Counted from the stretch's first letter, positions 1 through 12,089 are shown. The stretch: DNA of 49,083 bases from an uncultured Lachnospiraceae bacterium (GCA_902767235.1 CACXGR010000262.1:1-49083); one strand, 5' to 3'. Made by a program: numbers and translations. Notes: generated by a model from the letters alone, not told the origin.

Positions 1-2196
1 GAGAGCGAGAAGACAAAGGGGGAGATCTTTATCTCCCCGGACATTGCGATCTGCGACGACTGCAGGAGAGAACTTGAGGACCCCGGTGACCGCAGATACC
101 TGCATCCCTTCATCAACTGCACCTGCTGCGGCCCCAGGCTCACCATACTGGATGCCCTTCCCTACGACAGGGAGCGGACCAGCATGAAAATGTTCCCCAT
201 GTGCCCGGTATGTGAGCGGGAATACCACTCCCCGCTCAGCAGAAGGTACGACGCACAGCCTGTCTGCTGCAACGACTGCGGACCGGAGGTGTATCTGGCG
301 GGCGATCATGAGGTGAGGGGGCGCGAGGCCATCACATACACCCGGCGTGTCATTTCGCAGGGCGGCATTGCCGCTGTCAAGGGGATCGGCGGATTTCATC
401 TGTGCTGCGACGCGTCCAATGAGGAGGCGGTCGCAGAGCTCCGCAGGAGAAAGAACAGACCTGCAAAACCCTTTGCCGTGATGATGCGGGATGAGAAGGC
501 CGTGGAGCGGGAGTGCGAAATGAGCGCGGCACAGCGGGAGATCCTGACCGGGCACCAGAAACCGATCCTGCTGCTGTCAAAGAAAGAGGGCGGAAAGCTC
601 TGCAGGGGGATCGCGCCCGGCAATCCCACCGTCGGCGTCATGCTGCCCTATGCCCCGGTGCAGGTGCTTCTCTTTGACTACCCGGACGGCATCACCATGC
701 CGGACTGTCTGGTCATGACCAGCGGCAACATATCGGGCGCACCGATCTGCCGGGACGACACAGAGGCGATGCAGGAGCTGGGAAATATCTGCGACTGCAT
801 TTTGTCCCACAACCGAAAGATACGGATCCGGGCGGACGACTCCGTCATGGATTTCTTTGAGGGAGCGCCCTACATGATCAGAAGGTCCCGCGGATATGCG
901 CCGCTTCCCTACATGCTCTCCAAGTGGGATGAAGCTGCAGAGAAGATCTCCGGCGCCGGCGTGCTGGCCATCGGAGGAGAGCTCAAGAACACATTTTGTA
1001 TCGGGACAGGGGGGCTCTTTTATCCCTCGTCCTATATCGGGGATCTGGCGGACGTCCGAAGCGTGCGGGCGCTGGAGGAGACGATCGAGCGCTATGCATC
1101 CCTTCTGGAAGTCAGGCCGGATGTGATCGCCTGTGACCTGCATCCGAGGTACAATTCCCTTATCGTTGCGGAGAAAATGGCGGAGCGAATGGGCGGGGAA
1201 AACGGCAGCGGTCCGCTTCCCGTCATCAAAGTACAGCACCACTACGCGCACATTCTCAGCTGTATGGCGGAGAACGACCATCACGGCCCGGTCATCGGCG
1301 TGTCCATGGACGGGACCGGTTTCGGAACGGACGGGACCATATGGGGCGGCGAGATCCTGACAGCGGACTACAGGGGCTTTACCAGAGACGCCTCGATAAA
1401 GCCCTTCCTGCAGGTGGGCGGTGACATGTCGTCCCGGGACGGATGGAGGATCGCGGTGTCCATGCTCAGCACAATGGCCAGCCGCGGGGTATTTGAAAGG
1501 GAGGATGCAGAGCCGGGAGAGACGGCCTCTTTACCGGATGTGACAGAATTAGCCGGACTTTTGGGCCTGTGCACGGCACAGGAAGCATCGGTCATATCGA
1601 AGATGGCGCGCAGGAAGATGAACGCGGTGACATCCACCAGCGCGGGCCGGCTGTTTGATGCGGTCAGCGCGATCTGCGGCATATGCAGGCACTCCACATT
1701 CGAGGGAGAGGCTTCAATGGCGCTGGAGTTTGCGGCGGAGCGCTATGAGAAAGGGGCGGCAGAGGCGGAGATGGAAACCGCGCAAAAGAGCGATGCGTAT
1801 GGGCGCACAGGAGGTCCCGCGGACATTCCGGCCAGGGAGGCGGGGAGATGGATCCTGCCGACCGGGGAGATCGTCGCGGATATCGTGCGGCAAAGGCTGG
1901 AGGGAGAGGATCCGGACCGGCTGGCGTGGATCTTCCACAGGCGTCTGGCGGACCAGGTCATCGCCTGCTGCGTCCGCATCAGAGAGGAAAAGGGGATCAC
2001 AGCTGCAGCGCTGAGCGGCGGCTGTTTCCAGAACAGACTGCTGCTCGGATTTGTGAGGGACGGCCTGCGGGCAGAGGGATTTGAGGTGCTCACGCATCAT
2101 CTTGTGCCGCCCAATGACGGCGGGATCGCCCTGGGACAGGCCGCTGCCGCCATGCAGGCGCTGGCAGACGGAAGGATAGAGATCAGGAAGCAGTAA
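1..2196 (+). CDS. hypF: Carbamoyltransferase HypF (5' end lies upstream of the window)
   Basis: Frame is open from base 1 (ESEKTKGEIFISPDIAICDDC...FINCTCCGPR...CPVC). It has zinc-finger motifs, KGIGGFHL, RRSRGYAP, the Kae1-like QHHYAH and DGTGFGTDG motifs, and C-terminal PPNDGGIALGQ. Confidence 0.97.
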   Translation, partial: ESEKTKGEIFISPDIAICDDCRRELEDPGDRRYLHPFINCTCCGPRLTILDALPYDRERTSMKMFPMCPVCEREYHSPLSRRYDAQPVCCNDCGPEVYLAGDHEVRGREAITYTRRVISQGGIAAVKGIGGFHLCCDASNEEAVAELRRRKNRPAKPFAVMMRDEKAVERECEMSAAQREILTGHQKPILLLSKKEGGKLCRGIAPGNPTVGVMLPYAPVQVLLFDYPDGITMPDCLVMTSGNISGAPICRDDTEAMQELGNICDCILSHNRKIRIRADDSVMDFFEGAPYMIRRSRGYAPLPYMLSKWDEAAEKISGAGVLAIGGELKNTFCIGTGGLFYPSSYIGDLADVRSVRALEETIERYASLLEVRPDVIACDLHPRYNSLIVAEKMAERMGGENGSGPLPVIKVQHHYAHILSCMAENDHHGPVIGVSMDGTGFGTDGTIWGGEILTADYRGFTRDASIKPFLQVGGDMSSRDGWRIAVSMLSTMASRGVFEREDAEPGETASLPDVTELAGLLGLCTAQEASVISKMARRKMNAVTSTSAGRLFDAVSAICGICRHSTFEGEASMALEFAAERYEKGAAEAEMETAQKSDAYGRTGGPADIPAREAGRWILPTGEIVADIVRQRLEGEDPDRLAWIFHRRLADQVIACCVRIREEKGITAAALSGGCFQNRLLLGFVRDGLRAEGFEVLTHHLVPPNDGGIALGQAAAAMQALADGRIEIRKQ

Positions 2197-2207
2197 AGGA
2201 GATCAAT

Positions 2208-2420
2208 ATGTGTGTCGGATTATCAGCAAGAGTAGTGAAGATCAATGAAAACGGGATGGCGCTCGTGGACGCCAGCGGTGCCAAAAGACAGGTCTCCGCA
2301 CAGCTTCTGCAGGACCTGGAGCCCGGCGACTATGTCATGGTCCACGCCGGTGCGGCCATCGCAAAGATCACAAATGACGATGTGACAGAGACAGAGGAGC
2401 TGCTGGAGGAATACTTATGA
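2208..2420 (+). CDS. hypC: HypC/HupF family chaperone
   Basis: 70 aa, N-terminal Met-Cys (MCVGL), PGDYVMVHAGAAI with the conserved His; lies between hypF and hypD; RBS AGGAGA. Confidence 0.95.
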   Translation: MCVGLSARVVKINENGMALVDASGAKRQVSAQLLQDLEPGDYVMVHAGAAIAKITNDDVTETEELLEEYL

Positions 2421-3487
2421 CGGCCGCAGAGGGAAAGGAAAAGAGAGACGCGGGCAGAAGATCGGCGCTGGAGATCCTGAAAAACTACAGCGGCCCGGAC
2501 GTCCGGATCATGGAGGTGTGCGGGACCCACACACACGAGATCTTCAGGCTGGGGATCCGGAAGATCCTTCCTCCGTCCGTGAAGATGATCTCCGGGCCGG
2601 GATGTCCGGTGTGTGTGACGCCGGTCAATTATATCGACGAGGCACTTATGCTGGCCGGGGAGCACGGCTGCACGATCTGCACCTTCGGGGACCTCGTGAG
2701 AGTTCCCGGCACATCGTCCAGCCTGCAGAAGCAAAGAGGCGCCGGGGCAAAGGTAAAAGTGGTCTACGCTCCTTCTGACGCAGTGGAATACGCCGCAGCC
2801 CATCCCGGGGAGCAGGTCGTCTTTCTCTCGGTCGGATTCGAGACGACGACGCCGTCGGTCTGCCTGGCGGTGAAAGACGCCATGGAGAGGGGCGTGGAGA
2901 ATTTCTCTGTCTTGACAGCCAACAAGACCATGCCGGGCGCCTATGAAGCCATGAAGGACAGCACAGATCTCTTTCTGTATCCGGGACACGTGCATGCGAT
3001 CATAGGGACCGGGATCTGCGAGCAGCTGGCGGAGAGAGGCGTCAGCGGCATTTGTGCCGGATTTACGGCCCCGGAGCTCGTGACCGCGCTCGCTGTCGGC
3101 GTGACCCGGTTTGAGAGAGGGGAGCCTTTCTTTGTAAACTGCTATCCCAGAGTCGTCAAAGCGGAGGGACAGCCCGCGGCGGTCCGGCTGGTGGCGGAGA
3201 TGATGGAGCCCTGTGACAGTGAGTGGAGAGGGATCGGAGAGATCCCCCTGTCCGGTATGAAGCTCCGGGAGAAGTATGCGTCGTATGACGCAAGGGTCCG
3301 ATTCAGTCTGCCCAAAGTCACAGGCAGGGTCAATCCCGCCTGCCGCTGCGGCGAGGTGCTTCAGGGCAAGTGCCTGCCCTCGGACTGCCCGGTCTTTGGA
3401 AAAGGATGCACGCCCGAGCACCCGGTGGGCGCCTGTATGGTGTCGGGTGAAGGCGCATGTTCGGCGTTTTATTTGTACGGAGGTTGA
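2417..3487 (+). CDS. hypD: Hydrogenase formation protein HypD
   Basis: MEVCGTHTH, GPGCPVC, GFETT, PGHV and C-terminal CRC...C...C...CMVSGEGAC motifs; ATGA overlap with hypC. Confidence 0.97.
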   Translation: MTAAEGKEKRDAGRRSALEILKNYSGPDVRIMEVCGTHTHEIFRLGIRKILPPSVKMISGPGCPVCVTPVNYIDEALMLAGEHGCTICTFGDLVRVPGTSSSLQKQRGAGAKVKVVYAPSDAVEYAAAHPGEQVVFLSVGFETTTPSVCLAVKDAMERGVENFSVLTANKTMPGAYEAMKDSTDLFLYPGHVHAIIGTGICEQLAERGVSGICAGFTAPELVTALAVGVTRFERGEPFFVNCYPRVVKAEGQPAAVRLVAEMMEPCDSEWRGIGEIPLSGMKLREKYASYDARVRFSLPKVTGRVNPACRCGEVLQGKCLPSDCPVFGKGCTPEHPVGACMVSGEGACSAFYLYGG

Positions 3488-3488
3488 G

Positions 3489-4508
3489 ATGAAAAATGAA
3501 GCAGTAAGCGGCACGGTCACACTGGCGCACGGAGCGGGAGGAAAGCAGACCTCCGAGCTCATTGACAGGATATTCAAGCGGCATTTTGCCAACCCCCTCT
3601 TCACGGCCGACGACGCCGCCGTGATCGAGATGGAAAAGGGACGGATCGCGATGTCGACAGACAGCTTTATCGTATCCCCCGCCTTCTTTGCGGGCGGAAA
3701 CATCGGCAAACTGGCGATCTGCGGCACTGTCAACGATCTGGCCTGCATGGGCGCTGTGCCCAAATATCTCACCTGCGCCTTCGTGATCGAAGAGGGATTT
3801 GAGATCAAAAAGCTGGAGGAGATCGCGGAAGCGATGGAAAAGACCGCGCTGGAGGCAGGCGTCTGCATCGTCGCGGGTGACACCAAAGTGACGGGCAAAG
3901 GACAGGCAGACGGCGTTTTCATCAACACCACGGGCGTGGGCATCATTCCGGAAGGAATCCGCACGTCCGGCGCGCTTGCCGCGCCAGGAGACGTCGTCAT
4001 TGTCACCGGCGATATCGGGCGGCATGGCTGCACCATCCTTTTGGAGAGAGATGACTTCGGGATCGAGGCAGATGTGACCAGCGACTGCGCACCGCTGGGA
4101 AAGGCCGTGCAGGCTGCCCTGCAGGCGGTGCCGGACATCCATGTGATCCGGGACGCCACCAGGGGCGGCGTCGGAACGGTACTGTATGAGATCGCGGGCC
4201 AAAGCGGCGTGGGCGTCAATCTCGACGCGGCGTCCATACCCGTGGATCCGTCTGTCAGGGGCGTCTGCGGCCTTCTGGGGCTGGAACCGCTCTATCTGGC
4301 CTGCGAGGGAAGACTGGTGATGGTGTGCCCCGAAGACAAGGCCCCGCAGCTTCTTGAGGCGCTCCGCGGCTGCAGGTACACGGAAGGCGCTGCCGTGATC
4401 GGCAGGATCACGAAGGAGATGCCGGGCAGAGTCACAATGACGACGCAGATCGGGGCGCAGACGCTCCTCCCGCAGCCCGGAAATGAGCTGCTGCCCAGGA
4501 TCTGCTGA
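3489..4508 (+). CDS. hypE: Carbamoyl dehydratase HypE
   Basis: TLAHGAGG, GTVNDLA, GDTKV, RDATRGG and the C-terminal LPRIC cyanation site; start placed at ATG 3489 after GGAGG. Confidence 0.97.
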   Translation: MKNEAVSGTVTLAHGAGGKQTSELIDRIFKRHFANPLFTADDAAVIEMEKGRIAMSTDSFIVSPAFFAGGNIGKLAICGTVNDLACMGAVPKYLTCAFVIEEGFEIKKLEEIAEAMEKTALEAGVCIVAGDTKVTGKGQADGVFINTTGVGIIPEGIRTSGALAAPGDVVIVTGDIGRHGCTILLERDDFGIEADVTSDCAPLGKAVQAALQAVPDIHVIRDATRGGVGTVLYEIAGQSGVGVNLDAASIPVDPSVRGVCGLLGLEPLYLACEGRLVMVCPEDKAPQLLEALRGCRYTEGAAVIGRITKEMPGRVTMTTQIGAQTLLPQPGNELLPRIC

Positions 4509-4524
4509 CCCCGGAGGATGAACC

Positions 4525-4794
4525 ATGAGCAAAGACACAAGAGTAGCCGTGATCTCGATCATCGTGGAGAACGAGTCGGTCACGCAGAAGATCAATGAGA
4601 TCCTGCACGAGTACCGCGCCTGCATCATCGGGAGAATGGGCATTCCTTACAGAGATAAAGGGATCAGTATCATCAGTGTGGCTGTGGATGCGCCGCAGGA
4701 AGAGATCAGTGCGCTCTCCGGCAAGATCGGCAGACTTCCGGGCATCAGCACCAAGACGGCATATTCCAACGTCATAACAAAGGCGGAAATATAG
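4525..4794 (+). CDS. TM1266-family iron-only hydrogenase system putative regulator (NikR C-terminal/ACT-like fold)
   Basis: 89 aa with [19 protein letters not shown] and [14 protein letters not shown], typical of the family usually found beside hydEFG; RBS GGAGGA. Confidence 0.88.
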
Positions 4795-4807: not shown

Positions 4808-7006
4808 ATGATCAGATTGGCATTTTACGGAAAAGGCGGTATCGGCAAATCGACCACGGTGTCGAATCTGGCTGTGTGCTGGTCGCGCAGAGGATTGACC
4901 GTTCTGCTGATCGGATGCGATCCCAAGGCGGATGCATCGATCTTCATACGGGAGGGAGCGAAGATCCCCACTGTAATGGATAAGGTCCGGTCCAGGGAGC
5001 CTTTTTCTGTCGGCGACATCGTATATGTGAAAGAGACAGAAAACGGCGGCAGGATCATCTGCGCGGAGGCGGGCGGTCCCCTTCCCGGCAGAGGCTGCGC
5101 CGGCAGAGGCATCATCACTGCGCTGGATACCCTGAGGGAAAAGGGGATCATGGACAAATACAGGCCGGACATCGTGCTCTACGATATTTTGGGAGACGTC
5201 GTATGCGGCGGATTTGCCATGCCCATGCGCGACGGATATGCGGACCGTGTGTACATCGTCACGTCAGGGGAAAATATGTCGATCTATGCGGCGGCCAATA
5301 TAGGGCTCGCCGTGGAGCAGTACAGAGAACGCGGCTATGCGCGGCTCGGCGGCCTCATCCTGAACGAAAGAAAGGTCAAAAGAGAGCCGGAAAAGGTTCA
5401 GGAGCTGGCAGACGAGCTGGGAACTTCTGTGATCGGAACGGTTCCCCGGTCGGACCTCGTCCAGGAGGCGGAGGAGATCGGCAAAACGGTCAGCGAGGCC
5501 TTTCCCCGCTCTGAGATCGCAAAGCGCTACGCGGATCTGGCAGACCGGATCGCCGGAGAATGCAGCATAGCGTATCCGGCCGCCCAGGAGCCGGACCCGG
5601 TACCTGCCGGACACCTGTCTATGGCTGATCCCTTAAAGGATCTCAGTGCGGCTTGCAGGATCCCGGTGGGACAAGCTTCTTTTCCGGCGCCCTTTGCCGC
5701 CGGCCTGGAGTTCAATCCGCCTGTTCACGAGACCTGGAACATCGTGCACATCGGCATGCTGATGCCGCAGTCTCATCAGATCTATATCTGCGCCGACAAC
5801 TGCATGCGGGGTGTCGTCATGACGGCGGCGGAGATGAATGCCATGGACAGGTTTTCCTGTGTGGTGCTGGAAGAAGCGGACATCCATGCCGGAAATCTCG
5901 AGGAGATCACGCTGGAGGGGGTCACAGACGTGCTTGAAAAGCTTCGGAAAAGGAGGGGGGAGGACAAAATGCCGAAGGCGGTCCTGATCTTTCCGGTCTG
6001 CCTGCACCACTTCATGGGATGTGACATGAAATACGTCTACGAACAGCTGGCGGAGCGATTTAAGGAGATCACGTTTGTCAAAGGGTGGATGGATCCGATC
6101 ATGCAGAAGACGGGTCCCTCGCCGGACCAAAAGCTGAGAAAAGCCATGATGGATGTCCTTCAGCCCTCCGCATCAGAAAAGGCCGGAACGGCGCTGCTGG
6201 GAGATATCTACGCACTGGATCCGGACAGCGAGCTCATGCGCCTGATCAAAGCGGCCGACAAAAAGGCGGGCATCCGTTCCCTGCCTCTTCAGATCCAGGA
6301 CTGCCGCACACTGGCGGAGTACCGCGCCCTGTCCGCAAGAAGCGTGCTGATCACCAGAAGCCCTCTTGCGGCGGCTTCGGTCAGACAGACAGCGCGCAGG
6401 ATCGGGGCGCAGGCGCTCTGTCTGCCCGCGGAGACCGGATATGCAAAGATACGGGAACAGCTTGAGGCAGCGGCCCAGGTGATGGGTATATCGCTCGCGG
6501 AAGCCGGGATCGACACAGGAGCGGAAGAAGAGCGCTGTGAGCGGGCGCTGGGCAGACTCCGCGAGAGGATCTCGGATACGCCGATCGCACTGGACGCGGT
6601 CTCTGTCTCGAGGCCGCTGGGCTTTGCCCGCCTCCTCATCGAACACGGATTGAATGTGAGAGAGATCTATCTGGACGCGATCCTTACAGAGGAGGAGAGC
6701 GATTTTACGTGGCTTGCAGATCATTCCCCCGATCTCCTTCTGTGCAGCACGATCCATGTAGGCGGACGCTTTCTTCACGCCGGGCGGCTGGGCAAAGACC
6801 ACAGCCGGTATCTGGCTGTGGGGCCCAAGGCCGCCTGGTATTGCGGCACGGCCCATTTTGTGAACCTGGTCGACCAGGGCGGCATGTGGGGATACAGCGC
6901 GATCCGCAAGCTGGCAGCCCTCATGGAGGAGGCCTGCCGCATCGCCAAAGACACACGGGATCTTGTGCCCAGAAAGGGCCTGGGCTGTGAGAGCATGCTG
7001 CTTTGA
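4808..7006 (+). CDS. Fusion of a NifH-like Fe protein and a nitrogenase component-1-like subunit
   Basis: N-terminal ~255 aa have [30 protein letters not shown] and [15 protein letters not shown] Pro/Ala-rich linker precedes an oxidoreductase component-1-like region ([29 protein letters not shown]). One uninterrupted ORF. Confidence 0.88.
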
Positions 7007-7065: not shown

Positions 7066-8256
7066 ATGAGACAGACTTACAGGATCCTGCCGGTTTATTC
7101 CGGGGACGTCTCCGGCGTATGTTCGGCGCTGTATGAGCTGGGCGGGATGGTCGTGATGCACGACCCGTCGGGCTGCAATTCCACCTACAATACCCACGAC
7201 GAGACGCGCTGGTATGACCATGACAGCCTGATCTTTCTGTCCGGTCTTTGTGAGCCGGACGCCATCATGGGAAATGACGACAAGTTCATAGACGATGTGA
7301 TCAGGGCGGCCGCAGCCTGTTCGCCGGCATTTATCGCGCTGTGCAATTCGCCCGTCCCTTATCTGACCGGGACGGACTTTGCGGGCATCAGCGCGGTCAT
7401 CGAGGTGAGGACCGGTATACCGGTCTTCTATGTCCCGACAAACGGGATGCACGACTACATAAGCGGCGCGGGGATGGCCTGGGAACGGCTGGCACGGAAA
7501 TGGTTCGGCGAAGACAAAAACCGTCCGGCGCACGCCGGATCTTGTCCCGGTGCCCCAAAGGTCAGTGTGCTCGGCATGACGCCGCTGGATTTTGCCGCCG
7601 CCGGATGCGGGGACGCTCTCCAAAAAGTGCTGAGAGAGGGCGGCTTTGCGGCAGGCCCGGTATGGGCTATGGGCAGCTCCCTGCGGGAAATAGAGAAAAC
7701 GCCCTCGGCAGACGTCAATCTGGTGGTATCGGCGTCCGGTCTTCCCCTCGCAAAGTACCTGCACAGGCGGTTCGGGACGCCATGGACAGCCGGACTTCCC
7801 CTGCCCGGCCATACCGGCGGCGTGTTCCGCTCAATTGAGGAGGCAGTGGACAGCGGCAGCTGCGGCTGTGCTTACATGAGGGACCTGCCGGAAGGCTCCT
7901 GTGCATGCACAGCGCCGGAGGTCATCGTGATCGGTGAGCCGGTCAGCGCCTGCAGCATCGCTTATGTCTGCGAATCCAAAGGGTTGACCACCCGGGTCAT
8001 TGCCGCCACAGAAGGCAGTGAAGACCTGATCCGCCCCGGCGATCTCGTCTGCCGCGGCGAAGAAGAGACAGAGAACGCGCTCAGCGGCTTGTGCCGGCCG
8101 GGCACCAGGGTCCTTGCGGATCCCATGTACGAACGGATCTGCCCGGCGGGAACGGACTTTATCCCGATCCCTCATCTTGCTTTTTCAGGCAGGGTATACC
8201 GGAGCAGATTTATGAATCTTTTTGAAGCGGAAACCGCCCGCGGAATATTCGGCTGA
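7066..8256 (+). CDS. Nitrogenase component-1-like subunit (NifK/BchB/CfbD-like)
   Basis: VMHDPSGCNSTY resembles NifK HGSQGC and BchB HGPQGD; also DAIMGND, PYLTGTDF, ADVNLVVSASG, and LAKYLHRRFGTPW; RBS GGAGGA at 7056-7061. Confidence 0.85.
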   Translation: MRQTYRILPVYSGDVSGVCSALYELGGMVVMHDPSGCNSTYNTHDETRWYDHDSLIFLSGLCEPDAIMGNDDKFIDDVIRAAAACSPAFIALCNSPVPYLTGTDFAGISAVIEVRTGIPVFYVPTNGMHDYISGAGMAWERLARKWFGEDKNRPAHAGSCPGAPKVSVLGMTPLDFAAAGCGDALQKVLREGGFAAGPVWAMGSSLREIEKTPSADVNLVVSASGLPLAKYLHRRFGTPWTAGLPLPGHTGGVFRSIEEAVDSGSCGCAYMRDLPEGSCACTAPEVIVIGEPVSACSIAYVCESKGLTTRVIAATEGSEDLIRPGDLVCRGEEETENALSGLCRPGTRVLADPMYERICPAGTDFIPIPHLAFSGRVYRSRFMNLFEAETARGIFG

Positions 8257-8313: not shown

Positions 8314-9531
8314 ATGGGACTGAATGCAGCGCCGACAGGGGAACGCGTCCACATCGGTTTTTTCGGGAGAAGAAACGCCGGGAAATCGAGTCTGGTCAAT
8401 GCGGTCACAGACCAGGAGATCTCCGTGGTATCGGACACCAAGGGCACCACGACGGATCCGGTGAATAAATCCATGGAGCTCCTTCCGCTGGGACCGGTGG
8501 TCATCATAGACACGCCCGGTTTCGATGATGAGGGCGCGCTGGGCGAAAAGCGCGTGCAGCGGGCCAAAAGAGTGCTCAACCGCACCGATATCGCTGTGCT
8601 CGTCGCAGACGCAGTGAGCGGTATGGGAGAGGCGGACAGGGAACTGGTCCGGCTCTTTGAAGAGAAAGAGATCCCCTATGTCGTCGTATTCAACAAGGCG
8701 GATCTGATCGGAAAGATCCCTTGCAAAGGCGCAGAAAATGCGGAACCGGGGAGAGAACCCCTTTATGTCAGCGCCCTGACCGGCGCCGGCATCCATGCAC
8801 TCAAGGAGAGACTGGCCGGCATGGGACAGACCGGCAGCCGGCATACCCCCCTTGTCGAGGATCTGGTCAGCCCATCGGAGATCGTCCTGCTGGTGATCCC
8901 CATTGACAAAGCTGCTCCTAGAGGAAGGCTGATCCTGCCGCAGCAGATGACCATCAGAGGCATACTGGACGCGGACGGGATCCCGGTCTGCGTCAAGCAG
9001 GACAGGCTTAAGGAAGTGCTGGAGAGATTCGGAGATGATCCCGCCGGCCGGCCGGGGCTTGTCATCACAGACAGCCAGGTCTTTGAGGAAGTGGCCGCCG
9101 CCGTACCGCAGAGCATACCGCTCACTTCCTTTTCTATTTTGATGGCGAGATACAAGGGATTTCTGAACGCGGCCCTGGAAGGCGTGAAGCAGATCGACGC
9201 CCTGACGGACGGGGACACGGTCCTGATCTCGGAGGGATGCACCCACCACAGGCAGTGCGGCGATATAGGGACCGCAAAGCTGCCCGCCTGGATCCAAAAG
9301 CGGACCGGGAAAAAGATCCGCTTTGAGACTTCATCGGGGACCGGATTTCCGGAGGACCTTGGAAAATATAAAATGGTCATCCACTGCGGCGGCTGCATGC
9401 TGAACGAGAGGGAGATGCGCTTTCGGATGAAATGCGCCGCGGACCAGGGTGTCCCTTTTACCAATTACGGGACGGCCATCGCCCATATGAAGGGAATCCT
9501 GGACAGAAGTACCGCGATCGTGCGGAAGTAA
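8314..9531 (+). CDS. hydF: [FeFe]-hydrogenase H-cluster maturation GTPase HydF
   Basis: GRRNAGKSS, GTTTDPV, DTPG and NKAD GTPase motifs; GRLILPQ; Fe-S motif EGCTHH...HCGGC. Confidence 0.96.
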   Translation: MGLNAAPTGERVHIGFFGRRNAGKSSLVNAVTDQEISVVSDTKGTTTDPVNKSMELLPLGPVVIIDTPGFDDEGALGEKRVQRAKRVLNRTDIAVLVADAVSGMGEADRELVRLFEEKEIPYVVVFNKADLIGKIPCKGAENAEPGREPLYVSALTGAGIHALKERLAGMGQTGSRHTPLVEDLVSPSEIVLLVIPIDKAAPRGRLILPQQMTIRGILDADGIPVCVKQDRLKEVLERFGDDPAGRPGLVITDSQVFEEVAAAVPQSIPLTSFSILMARYKGFLNAALEGVKQIDALTDGDTVLISEGCTHHRQCGDIGTAKLPAWIQKRTGKKIRFETSSGTGFPEDLGKYKMVIHCGGCMLNEREMRFRMKCAADQGVPFTNYGTAIAHMKGILDRSTAIVRK

Positions 9532-9553: not shown

Positions 9554-10687
9554 ATGCACGTCGAAGAACTGGTGAAAAGCCTGAGAGAGAACAGTATACT
9601 GAGCAGAGAGGAGCTGCGGCAGCTTCTGTCCGGTTACGGGGTGCTTGAGGAGAGATCTCCTGTGCGGGACGTAAAGATGTGCGAAACACTGCCGGGGGCA
9701 CGCTGCACAAAAGAGGAGTCCTTTTTATTTGAAAACGCGCGGCAGGTCCGGGAGAGATCCTACGGCAAAGATGTCTATCTGCGCGGCCTGATCGAGTTTA
9801 CCAATTACTGCCGATGCGACTGCCGCTACTGCGGGATCCGCAGGAGCAACACGGTGGCACAGAGATACCGGCTGAGCAGAGAGCAGATACTGGACTGCTG
9901 CGAAGAAGGATACGGCCTGGGCTTTCGGACTTTTGTCCTGCAGGGCGGAGAGGACATGGCTTATTCGGACGGACAGATCTGCGAGCTGGTCTCTTCCATA
10001 AAGAGCAGATACGGGGACTGCGCCGTGACGCTGTCAATAGGGGAGCGGAAAAGAGAGTCCTACCGGGCCTATTTTGACGCCGGCGCCGACCGCTATCTCC
10101 TCAGACAGGAGACTTCCGACCCCGCGCATTACCGCTATCTTCATCCCGAACAGCAGACGATCGAGAACCGAAAGAGATGTCTCTGGGATCTGAGGGAGAT
10201 CGGATACCAGGTCGGCTGCGGCATAATGACGGGCTCACCGGGGCAGACGACGGAGCACATCATTGAGGACCTGCTCTTTATGAAGGAACTGTCGCCGCAA
10301 ATGATCGGGATCGGGCCCTTTATACCGCACAAAGACACCCCATTCGCCCGGGAAAAGGCAGGTACCCTGCAGGACACGCTGATCCTGCTGGCCGTGATCA
10401 GGCTGATGATGCCGGACGTGCTCCTGCCCGCGACGACGGCGCTCGGCACGATCGATCCCCTGGGAAGGGAGAGGGGACTCTTAGCCGGCGCGAATGTGAT
10501 CATGCCCAATCTGTCGCCTGCCGGCGTCAGAGGCAAATACCTTCTCTACGACGGCAAAATATGCACCGGCGATGAGGCGGCGCAGTGCCGGATCTGTCTG
10601 GAAAAGCGGGTCGAAAGGACGGGGTACAGGGTGATCATGTCCAGGGGTGACTGCGCCGGCTTCGTCCGCAGGCAAAACAGAGAGTAA
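9554..10687 (+). CDS. hydE: [FeFe]-hydrogenase radical SAM maturase HydE
   Basis: RGLIEFTNY-CxxxCxxC (CRCDCRYC), LQGGED, GADRYLLRQET, GIGPFIPHKDTP, GANVIMPN, YLLYDGK and the auxiliary Cx7Cx2C motif (CTGDEAAQCRIC). Confidence 0.93.
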   Translation: MHVEELVKSLRENSILSREELRQLLSGYGVLEERSPVRDVKMCETLPGARCTKEESFLFENARQVRERSYGKDVYLRGLIEFTNYCRCDCRYCGIRRSNTVAQRYRLSREQILDCCEEGYGLGFRTFVLQGGEDMAYSDGQICELVSSIKSRYGDCAVTLSIGERKRESYRAYFDAGADRYLLRQETSDPAHYRYLHPEQQTIENRKRCLWDLREIGYQVGCGIMTGSPGQTTEHIIEDLLFMKELSPQMIGIGPFIPHKDTPFAREKAGTLQDTLILLAVIRLMMPDVLLPATTALGTIDPLGRERGLLAGANVIMPNLSPAGVRGKYLLYDGKICTGDEAAQCRICLEKRVERTGYRVIMSRGDCAGFVRRQNRE

Positions 10688-10724: not shown

Positions 10725-12089
10725 ATGGGATACAGGATCGAACATGACTCGATGGGAGAGATGATGGTGCCCGAGGAGCGCCTGTGGGGCGCACAGACGC
10801 AGAGAAGCTATCAGAATTTTAAGATCGGCACAGAGAAGATGCCGCAGGAAGTGATCAGGGCCTTTGCGGTCCTGAAATCGGCTGCCGCCATCGCCAACAA
10901 CAGGATCGGCAAACTGGACGATGAGAGATGCAAACTGATCGGAAAAGTCTGTACGGAAATCCTTGAAGGCGGCATGTATGACGAATTTCCGCTCGTGGTA
11001 TGGCAGACCGGAAGCGGCACGCAGTCCAATATGAACGTGAATGAGGTCATCGCGAACCGCGGAAATCAGATCGCGGGCCAAAAGCTTCTTCATCCGAACG
11101 ACACGGTCAATATGTCACAGAGCTCCAACGATACCTTTCCGACCGCAATGAATATTGCCGCCGTCATGTCTCTGAAAAACCGTCTTTATCCGGCCATGGA
11201 GGCACTGATCGCAGAACTCAGACGCCTGGAGAAAGAGAATGAAGGGATCGTAAAGAGCGGGAGGACTCACCTTCAGGACGCCGTCCCGATCGCCTTTTCC
11301 CAGGAGATCAGCGGATGGAGAAATATGATCGAAAAGTGCCGGGATATGATCAGGGACTCGGAAAAAGGCCTCAGAGAGCTGGCACTGGGAGGAACAGCCG
11401 TGGGAACCGGTCTGAACGCACCGGAAGGATTTGCCAAGGAAGCGGCAAAGGCAGTCTCCGAACTTACGGAAGTGGAGTTCTGTTCGGAGGAGAACAAGTT
11501 CCATGCTCTTTCCGCCAAGGACGCGATCGTATTTTCACACGGCTCTCTCAAATCGCTGGCGGCGGACCTTATGAAGATCGCCAACGATGTGCGCTGGCTC
11601 TCCAGCGGTCCCAGATGCGGTCTGGGAGAGATCCTGATCCCCGAGAACGAGCCCGGCAGTTCCATCATGCCCGGAAAGGTAAACCCCACCCAGTGCGAGG
11701 CGGTGACCATGGTGGCCGTGCAGGTCATGGGAAATGACGCCGCCGTCGGATTTGCGGCGTCCCAGGGCAATTTTCAGCTGAACGTATTCATGCCGGTCAT
11801 CATCTACAATTATCTGCAGTCGGTCAGACTGCTCGCGGACTGTATCGATTCCTTTAGGACCAACTGTGTGAGCGGCATAAGGCCCAACAGGGAAAAGATG
11901 GCCCATAATCTCCACAATTCGCTGATGCTGGTGACCGCCCTCAATCCCTACATCGGGTATGAAAATGCGGCGAAGACAGCCAAGCTGGCCTACAAGGAGA
12001 ATATTTCCCTCCGAGAGGCCTGTATACGGCTCGGTTTCCTGACGCCCGACAGATTTGACGAGGTATTTCATCCGGAAGAAATGGTCTGA
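10725..12089 (+). CDS. fumC: Class II fumarate hydratase
   Basis: RIEHDSMG, WQTGSGTQSNMN, GRTHLQDA and the signature GSSIMPGKVNPTQCEA (TQCEA is FumC-type rather than AspA-type). Confidence 0.93.
   Translation: MGYRIEHDSMGEMMVPEERLWGAQTQRSYQNFKIGTEKMPQEVIRAFAVLKSAAAIANNRIGKLDDERCKLIGKVCTEILEGGMYDEFPLVVWQTGSGTQSNMNVNEVIANRGNQIAGQKLLHPNDTVNMSQSSNDTFPTAMNIAAVMSLKNRLYPAMEALIAELRRLEKENEGIVKSGRTHLQDAVPIAFSQEISGWRNMIEKCRDMIRDSEKGLRELALGGTAVGTGLNAPEGFAKEAAKAVSELTEVEFCSEENKFHALSAKDAIVFSHGSLKSLAADLMKIANDVRWLSSGPRCGLGEILIPENEPGSSIMPGKVNPTQCEAVTMVAVQVMGNDAAVGFAASQGNFQLNVFMPVIIYNYLQSVRLLADCIDSFRTNCVSGIRPNREKMAHNLHNSLMLVTALNPYIGYENAAKTAKLAYKENISLREACIRLGFLTPDRFDEVFHPEEMV

Follow-up and report, generated by a model that had tools for sequence, protein, structure and literature searches.

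The window analysed here, a stretch of 49,083 nucleotides from an uncultured Lachnospiraceae bacterium (GCA_902767235.1 CACXGR010000262.1:1-49083), carries an operon in which hydrogenase maturation genes of the Hyp and Hyd types flank a gene fusion at 4808-7006, whose product joins a NifH-like Fe protein (H1) to a nitrogenase-like alpha-type subunit (D1). HydG is treated as essential for H-cluster synthesis; judging from gene distribution, the operon as a whole probably replaces it. A preliminary description of the window had singled out the fusion, which is borne out below, but had missed that the operon takes the place of hydG, as found in 25 of the 28 family genomes with HydF and no HydG. 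The operon is nearly confined to gut bacteria that possess hydrogenases, HydE and HydF and lack HydG. The fusion by itself is an event of a familiar type within an uncharacterised clade, the main finding being the operon that probably stands in for hydG.

D1 and HydG are nearly mutually exclusive in genomes that keep HydF. In the family sample, composed of 250 genomes at least 90% complete (one per genus), HydF and HydG occur together in 107 genomes, HydF alone in 28, HydG alone in three and neither in 112. A D1 orthologue (E ≤ 1e-60) is present in 25 of the 28 genomes with HydF and no HydG, in 1 of the 107 possessing both and in 1 of the 115 without HydF; with a looser cut, comprising all 33 family matches at E ≤ 1e-10, these counts become 25/28, 2/107 and 6/115. 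As for the class sample (299 scored genomes, G393 being left out), D1 orthologues were found in 7 of the 12 genomes with HydF and no HydG, these seven coming from four other families, and in none of the 189 genomes with both proteins or the 98 without HydF (7/12, 2/189 and 2/98 once four weak matches are added). HydG is absent from 26 of the 27 family D1 genomes and from all seven class D1 genomes. Within a single genus, g310, four genomes hold D1 without HydG and two hold HydG without D1: the gene order is TM1266-hydE-hydG-hydF in locus L107 and TM1266-D1-K1-hydF in its relatives L105 and L106.

Among 50 genomes reached through related loci (Bacillota, Lentisphaerota and Actinomycetota, their completeness not given), HydG exceeded its cut-off in one and gave no match even at E 1e-30 in 39; a divergent HydG was considered for ten, with sub-cut-off matches of 171-196 bits, and rejected, these matches being probably ThiH-like. 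An [FeFe]-hydrogenase domain is present in 49 of the 50 genomes chosen for the module sample described below, including every D1 genome among them and thus all 27 from the family. Concerning the 112 family genomes with neither HydF nor HydG, the three that were checked (G054, G119 and G220) still carry [FeFe]-hydrogenase domains.

The operon order is H2, D2K2, hypF, hypC, hypD, hypE, TM1266, H1D1, K1, hydF, hydE and a fumarase/aspartase-family gene, without hydG. Its features and the remainder of the window are the following:

L083:392-3726 (G000:C258), minus strand: H2-D2K2 set, with free H2 and fused D2K2 of 850 residues, directly upstream of hypF
1-2196, plus strand: hypF, carbamoyltransferase (TIGR00143, 561.6 bits against a cut-off of 466)
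2208-2420, plus strand: hypC, with an N-terminal Cys (MCVG; PF01455, E 7.7e-23)
2417-3487, plus strand: hypD, cluster type (TIGR00075, over cut-off)
3489-4508, plus strand: hypE, with a C-terminal PRIC (TIGR02124, over cut-off)
4525-4794, plus strand: putative regulator of the TM1266 family (TIGR03959, over cut-off)
4808-5581, plus strand: H1 domain of the fusion, a NifH-like Fe protein with P-loop, Cys97, Arg100 and Cys133
5582-5662, plus strand: linker of about 27 residues, flexible, poorly conserved and without a conserved start codon
5663-7006, plus strand: D1 domain of the fusion, a nitrogenase-like alpha-type subunit with conserved His314, Cys328, Cys332 and Cys398 and a C-terminal KGxGC (Cys727)
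7066-8256, plus strand: K1, a nitrogenase-like beta-type subunit of 396 residues (PF00148, E 5.8e-24) with conserved Asp14, His32-Asp33, Cys37 and DExRW
8314-9531, plus strand: hydF, H-cluster maturation GTPase (TIGR03918, 544 bits against a cut-off of 325.6)
9554-10687, plus strand: hydE, H-cluster maturase of the radical S-adenosylmethionine (SAM) type (TIGR03956, 546.7 bits against a cut-off of 254.6)
10725-12089, plus strand: lyase of the fumarase/aspartase family (over the fumC_II cut-off, under that of aspA)
12227-49083: rest of the window, ordinary housekeeping genes (amino-acid ATP-binding cassette (ABC) transporter, aminotransferase, diaminopimelate epimerase, Val-tRNA ligase, pyrimidine and purine genes, ClpC, RadA and acyl-CoA enzymes)

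The 5' end of hypF lies on contig C258, which overlaps the window start and carries the upstream H2 and fused D2K2; in a tblastn search, the HypF of locus L002 matched C258 over residues 1-123 and C262 over residues 96-795, the ends of both contigs sharing sequence. H2 is 48% identical to H1. D1 and D2 are distant paralogues (hhalign probability 100%, E 1.9e-48, 20% identity), with invariant Cys69, Cys70, Cys127 and Cys130 in D2, and Cys35 and Cys40 in K2. The MCVG of HypC is found in 43 of 43 copies and the PRIC of HypE in all 38 complete ones. The window genome possesses one [FeFe]-hydrogenase, as well as an Ech-type [NiFe] operon on another contig (L084, G000:C46:102-8277) that includes hypA, hypC, hypD and hypE; this second, canonical hypD is 42% identical to that of the cluster. 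No second hypF was found in this incomplete (77%) genome, and the cluster HypF may serve both operons. HydE aligns to that of T. maritima without long gaps (E 3.5e-87), and is located elsewhere in all five genomes whose operon lacks hydE. The TM1266 family also leads canonical hydE-hydG-hydF operons, as in L107. Genes of the fumarase/aspartase family are present in 11 of 80 loci; in this clade only does one follow hydE, and its link to the system is therefore weak, aspA being described as common next to hydF (PMC11736057). No Rfam family reached its gathering score in the window or in L083.

The partners of H1-D1-K1 fall into two modules, which were analysed in 50 chosen genomes: 27 family D1 genomes, three with HydF and neither HydG nor D1, four with a distant D only and 16 reached through loci. 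D2 (E < 1e-100) and cluster-type HypD (at least 60% identity) coincide in exactly 25 of these 50. A [NiFe] large subunit (PF00374) occurs in five of the 25, each with a second canonical HypD, and is missing from the other 20, so that in most cases the cluster Hyp proteins have no [NiFe] client. As for the ten family D1 genomes without D2 and Hyp, an importer lies inside the H1-D1-K1 operon in nine, the tenth being cut by a contig end. This importer, of the iron-chelate/B12 class, combines a Peripla_BP_2 binding protein with a FecCD permease and an ATPase that is frequently fused to TM1266. At the locus level, 59 of the 79 related loci plus the window hold a D1 orthologue; 47 of them have the make module (H2-D2K2 with Hyp), eight the importer, four neither within the available DNA, and none both. 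The simplest reading is that the product of the H2-D2K2/Hyp module can also be taken up through the importer, and is used by H1D1K1 together with HydE and HydF.

In L030:5645-6955 and L086:5113-6201, the importer ATPase has a C-terminal TM1266-like domain, which ties transport control to the hydrogenase-maturase regulator family. The closest solved relatives of the binding protein are uncharacterised periplasmic binding proteins (4ovk, E 1.7e-39), with BtuF at only about 1e-4, and give no ligand clue. In G019, labelled Lactobacillus, two D1K1 copies with binding proteins (L022:14792-17289) coexist with a full HydG, a binning error being possible. Also, a distant H-D-K group (20-29% identity to D1) occurs with a FecCD importer and without hydE and hydF in L102, L103, L104, L046, L056, L057, L068, L069 and L073; its hosts are Treponema, Breznakiella, bins labelled Accumulibacter and Clostridia.

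HypF, HypC, HypD and HypE build the Fe(CN)2CO unit of [NiFe]-hydrogenases. On the strength of co-occurrence, we lean slightly towards an ATP-driven and HydG-independent supply, made or imported, of an Fe-CO/CN unit to HydE and HydF. As in [NiFe]-hydrogenase maturation, HypF and HypE would make cyanide, and HypC and HypD would assemble an Fe(CN)x(CO)y unit; H2-D2K2 would then convert this iron unit or release it as a stable small complex, which importer-only species would take up. H1-D1K1 would remodel the complex to the Fe(CO)2(CN)-thiolate form accepted by HydE, by means of ATP-gated low-potential electrons. From residue conservation, the electron path would include a predicted [4Fe-4S] cluster at the D1/K1 interface, held by Cys332, Cys398 and K1 Cys37 together with either Cys328 or an Asp; iron might be carried by Cys727, conserved at the C-terminus. 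HydG makes [Fe(CN)(CO)2(cysteinate)] and HydE binds that product; a synthetic [Fe(CN)(CO)2(cysteinate)] donor substitutes for HydG in vitro (PMC8855341). In a fuller version, which we put forward only tentatively, gut and rumen anaerobes without HydG would assemble an Fe-carbonyl-cyanide complex by means of repurposed [NiFe] maturases and a first nitrogenase-like enzyme, and would share it as an organometallic 'vitamin', imported by a dedicated ABC transporter and converted into the HydE substrate by the second nitrogenase-like enzyme, which in the window is the single-chain fusion. A complex prediction for HypC with D2 and K2 scored 0.00 in two runs, with controls not folded, and was not used as evidence. 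No description of HydG replacement by these genes was found in the open-access literature, subscription journals and most supplements lying outside the search; acetogens with HydE, HydF and no clear HydG have been noted, with no such route offered in the text consulted (PMC9431212).

Several points weigh against this supply of an iron unit by the operon. Related genomes are not independent, so that the Fisher P value for the family sample overstates the exclusion, and the D1 cut, set where the ranked matches show a break, was applied with the HydG and HydF results already known. D1 is absent from 3 of the 28 family and 5 of the 12 class genomes with HydF and no HydG, some of which may be assembly gaps (one such genome, G104, has no [FeFe] domain); D1 and HydG are found together in G293 and G019, and D1 without a HydF match in G245. 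No hydG lies in the cluster, and its absence from the window genome is weak evidence on its own, this genome being 77% complete. As for the chemistry, no known reaction leads from Fe(CN)2CO to Fe(CO)2CN, and a precedent for the ligand exchange was not found; genes for cysteine supply or CO production are not conserved across the loci, as judged from the open reading frame (ORF) families compared. Finally, the distant H-D-K and importer operons without hydF (L103, L104, L068 and L073) imply a different use for the importer and the wider family, and what is imported may be a tetrapyrrole or another chelate.

The same co-occurrence would equally support a second way of replacing HydG, in which H2-D2K2 and HypFCDE act as a scaffold resembling NifEN, on which a metal cofactor bearing cyanide is assembled for D1K1; species with the importer alone would take this cofactor up like a vitamin, and holo-D1K1 would make CO and/or the iron unit for HydE, from CO2 for example. 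The paralogy of D1 and D2, which recalls that of NifD and NifE, speaks for such a scaffold, as does NifE being the best D1 profile match among solved structures. However, the NifE ligand Cys in NMMVCSK aligns to a non-Cys position in the D1 profile, so that D1 has no Cys where the FeMo-cofactor or L-cluster would be bound; H1 has been dropped from several make-type operons; and the CN and CO on iron produced by HydG match the products of HypFCDE, which favours relay of a substrate over that of a cofactor. We regard the scaffold as unlikely.

A further alternative takes HydE, HydF and the Hyp proteins as recruited to build a new Fe-CO/CN cofactor for the nitrogenase-like enzyme itself, which would act as reductase of a sulfur compound or a tetrapyrrole, either imported or from the cell, the [FeFe]-hydrogenases being matured otherwise or not at all. 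It fits an operon that usually lacks hydA, an importer of the iron-chelate/B12 class, the distant H-D-K and importer operons without hydF, and the action of other Group IV enzymes on sulfur compounds or tetrapyrroles (PMC13753814, PMC11423573). It leaves unexplained the near-absence of D1 from HydG-positive genomes, as well as the single hydF of D1 genomes, sometimes distant from the operon (1.1 Mb in the one-contig genome G256), beside one to seven [FeFe] domains; moreover, in L106 and L114 the gene immediately upstream of H2 is hydA-like. This explanation is given a quite low probability.

Concerning the fusion itself, it is real at the DNA level. Positions 4808-7006 translate as a single open frame of 732 residues with zero stops. 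In the Pfam scan, Fer4_NifH spans residues 3-257 (E 5.5e-82) and Oxidored_nitro residues 385-623 (E 5.3e-06, slightly below the family cut-off), the two domains that the preliminary description had anticipated. Its complete Fe-protein domain, with P-loop, both cluster cysteines and Arg, is upheld by the alignment, where the P-loop, Cys97 and Cys133 are conserved in 52 of 52 H1 domains and Arg100 in 51. The in-frame passage into a catalytic-type subunit is equally supported by the model of the C-terminal 450 residues (mean predicted local distance difference test score, pLDDT, of 90.8), which matches the component-1 chains of nitrogenase, dark-operative protochlorophyllide oxidoreductase (DPOR), NifEN and methylthio-alkane reductase (Mar) at a query-normalised TM-score (TMq) of about 0.6 and 10-18% identity, all roughly equidistant. 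D1 was folded apart because Foldseek with the full-length model gave Fe proteins alone among the 50 matches listed. At the D1 tail (6974-7006), a conserved KGxGC(x)nC-type motif is absent from D2 and modelled with low confidence; Cys727 is kept in 56 of 58 sequences, and split forms often have two to three Cys.

The linker (about residues 258-285) is predicted to be unstructured, with pLDDT below 50 at 261-281 in the full-length model, and its sequence varies among fused relatives. Before its Met272, the Shine-Dalgarno-like match is of three bases, against four to six for nine real operon starts, and six of nine fused relatives (L001-L003, L005, L006 and L009) have no in-frame start codon in residues 246-300, in agreement with the earlier view that no good internal ribosome-binding site precedes the linker Met. 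Single contigs (not raw reads) from four separate studies cross the linker and, over 5540-5680, show no indels and have no substitutions listed, which provides the support sought across about 5550-5680. A contig from an RNA library covers 5289-5723 with one differing letter and no indel over the linker; the RNA runs over the operon yield short, low-depth contigs that say nothing on level, strand or single transcript.

A protein search restricted to similar lengths gave about 90 full-length fused relatives at 64-83% identity, plus four at 44-48%, the fusion spanning the rumen Lachnospiraceae clade at 66-83% identity. The window's assembly, 77% complete and in 341 contigs, might raise the suspicion of an assembly or sequencing artefact, or of a recent functionless loss of a stop; with a linker unchanged in the contigs of four studies, these 90 or so fused proteins and a branch support (SH-aLRT) of 99% for the fused clade, such an origin is so improbable as to be practically negligible. 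The fusion is thus natural, as first described: the linker has neither stop nor frameshift, and close homologues are not all split. One of them, P0107 (D-only, 71% identity), was considered as a close split form and rejected, being a gene-caller fragment of the fused P0036 (branch 0.0035).

Counting fused versus split homologues, as had been suggested, gave a divided picture: the fusion is conserved within the clade, whereas the split form predominates among the 59 D1 loci, with 44 split and H directly upstream, ten fused and five without adjacent H. Among the best 150 representatives at 50% identity, there are one H-D and five D-K fusions (the D1-K1 fusions P0139, P0170, P0188, P0190 and P0196), both junctions being fused within the family, and the fused H1-D1 clade also possesses a D2-K2 fusion. 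Where the two genes are split, the end of H generally adjoins or overlaps the beginning of D (median gap of -7 nt; 23 of 29 measurable junctions within -25 to +15 nt), so that loss of one stop fuses them, and a lost stop codon between overlapping genes is the most likely origin of H1-D1. In a quick maximum-likelihood search with IQ-TREE, the window's fused clade (rumen Lachnospiraceae) is nested among split forms, and two further fusion lineages lie elsewhere on the D1 tree, the fusion having arisen at least three times. Fusions resembling nifH–nifE had already been mentioned in 2012 as 'data not shown' (PMC3464626).

The fusion is best read as repeated operon compaction, tolerated via a flexible tether, rather than as a new electron-transfer design; it would keep the reductase local while being dispensable. 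The fusion is not needed, given that orthologues are predominantly split and that the operon also encodes a free H2; since H1 is missing from several operons that retain H2 (L017, L064, L075, L077, L105, L106 and L114), stoichiometry need not be fixed. The fixed stoichiometry proposed earlier holds as arithmetic, one H domain per D meaning that an H dimer needs two D chains, but is binding only if H2 takes no part. The unusual electron-transfer architecture drawn from it is made unlikely by the 44, 10 and 5 loci counted above and an H1 dispensable in at least seven loci. Selection for tethering, which would fix one Fe-protein dimer per two catalytic protomers in a distinct alternating electron-transfer cycle, could account for a frame kept across the clade at 66-83% identity with a variable and mostly start-free linker, and for the repeated origins. 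It is nevertheless highly improbable given the mostly split orthologues, gene overlaps that put fusion one mutation away, the D2-K2 fusion of the same clade and the commoner D1-K1 fusions (5 vs. 1), the free H2, the dispensable H1, and apparent drift of the window H1 at two near-invariant positions. These are residues 34 and 43 (4907-4936), adjoining the switch I motif, which are Leu and Ala in the window vs. Gln and Ser in 51 of 52 H1 domains; the changes Gln34->Leu and Ser43->Ala may be drift in a tethered copy.

The fusion alone is of modest interest: it reduces the enzyme to two genes and provides a natural setting in which to ask whether the Fe protein must dissociate at each cycle. Of the 135 HydF-bearing genomes in the family sample, 28 are without HydG, and 25 of these 28 carry the system. 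If supply of an iron unit by this system is true, it would represent a second route to the H-cluster and would give a nitrogenase-like enzyme its first known part in assembling a carbonyl/cyanide cofactor. The maturation of [NiFe] and of [FeFe] enzymes would then be directly linked, and a cross-fed organometallic metabolite might influence H2 production in the rumen and gut. This reading also makes testable the role of the orphan Group IV clade of 2012 and hydrogenase maturation in HydG-less bacteria, including the acetogen puzzle (PMC9431212).

Compared with the known Fe-protein systems (NifH-NifEN/NifDK, DPOR and chlorophyllide oxidoreductase (COR), CfbCD, MarHDK and IsrHDK), the window set shares the Fe-protein fold and motifs, the component-1 fold (TMq of about 0.6) and, likely, ATP-gated electron delivery to an interface Fe-S cluster; it differs in missing all family cut-offs, in its 10-18% identity, its reduced Cys set, a cluster without nifB or marB, and an Fe protein that is covalently joined. 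Nitrogenase (NifHDK/Vnf/Anf) was rejected on scores (H1 294 vs. a TIGR01287 cut-off of 394 bits; K1 41 vs. 505 for nifE and 25 vs. 654 for nifD) and on an incomplete P-cluster set, D1 keeping Cys328/332/398 and K1 only Cys37, as well as on the missing Cys ligand for the FeMo-cofactor; a profile search gave no nifD or nifE family match for D1. None of nifB, nifE and nifN is among the ORF families conserved in the loci, nifB not having been searched genome-wide, and the window genome yielded no more than two H and two D/K sets. DPOR/COR (Group V) were set aside as the BchL/BchX and BchN/BchB cut-offs were missed (170 vs. 345, 165 vs. 331, 27 vs. 324 and 22 vs. 490 bits), and CfbCD as H1 reached 290 vs. 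402 bits for CfbC and the two catalytic subunits, D1 and K1, differ from one another instead of forming a homodimer. The hallmarks of MarBHDK (Group IV-C) are six mar1 Cys, a Cys/His pair for mar2, and marB (PMC13753814). Mar was likewise dismissed, the Cys set being incomplete, HydE being the only radical SAM gene of the cluster and identity to Mar chains 14-16%. H1-D1K1 works like the nitrogenase relatives in using an Fe protein and is a member of none.

In the portions consulted, papers on Group IV leave other clades without function (PMC13753814, PMC11423573), and the word 'hydrogenase' is absent from the main text of PMC13753814. An unnamed clade of Coprococcus catus and Dorea longicatena, described by Dos Santos et al. 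in 2012 (PMC3464626), resembles our set by description: it has two linked H/D/K sets with hydrogenase maturation genes nearby, and two conserved Cys at alpha-88/alpha-154 and one at beta-95 (PMC3464626). In our set, D1 Cys398 aligns to the NTCVP Cys of NifE and K1 Cys37 to the Cys of a NifN-type HGAQGC, Cys332 being assigned by position only. The passages on that clade give no function and mention neither that hydG is missing, nor the mixture of Hyp and Hyd genes, nor the alternative make and import modules, although supplements may show neighbourhoods (PMC3464626).

With the HypCDEF machinery of [NiFe]-hydrogenases, the cluster shares HypF, HypC (N-terminal Cys), HypD and HypE (PRIC), all of which look intact; it differs in having no hypA, hypB or large subunit, in 20 of 25 genomes without a [NiFe] large subunit and in the second Hyp set kept by the remainder. 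With the canonical HydEFG system, it shares HydE, HydF and TM1266 over their cut-offs and [FeFe]-hydrogenases in the genomes; the difference lies in HydG, which is missing; three nitrogenase-like proteins, accompanied by Hyp proteins in some genomes and by an importer in others, occupy its place.

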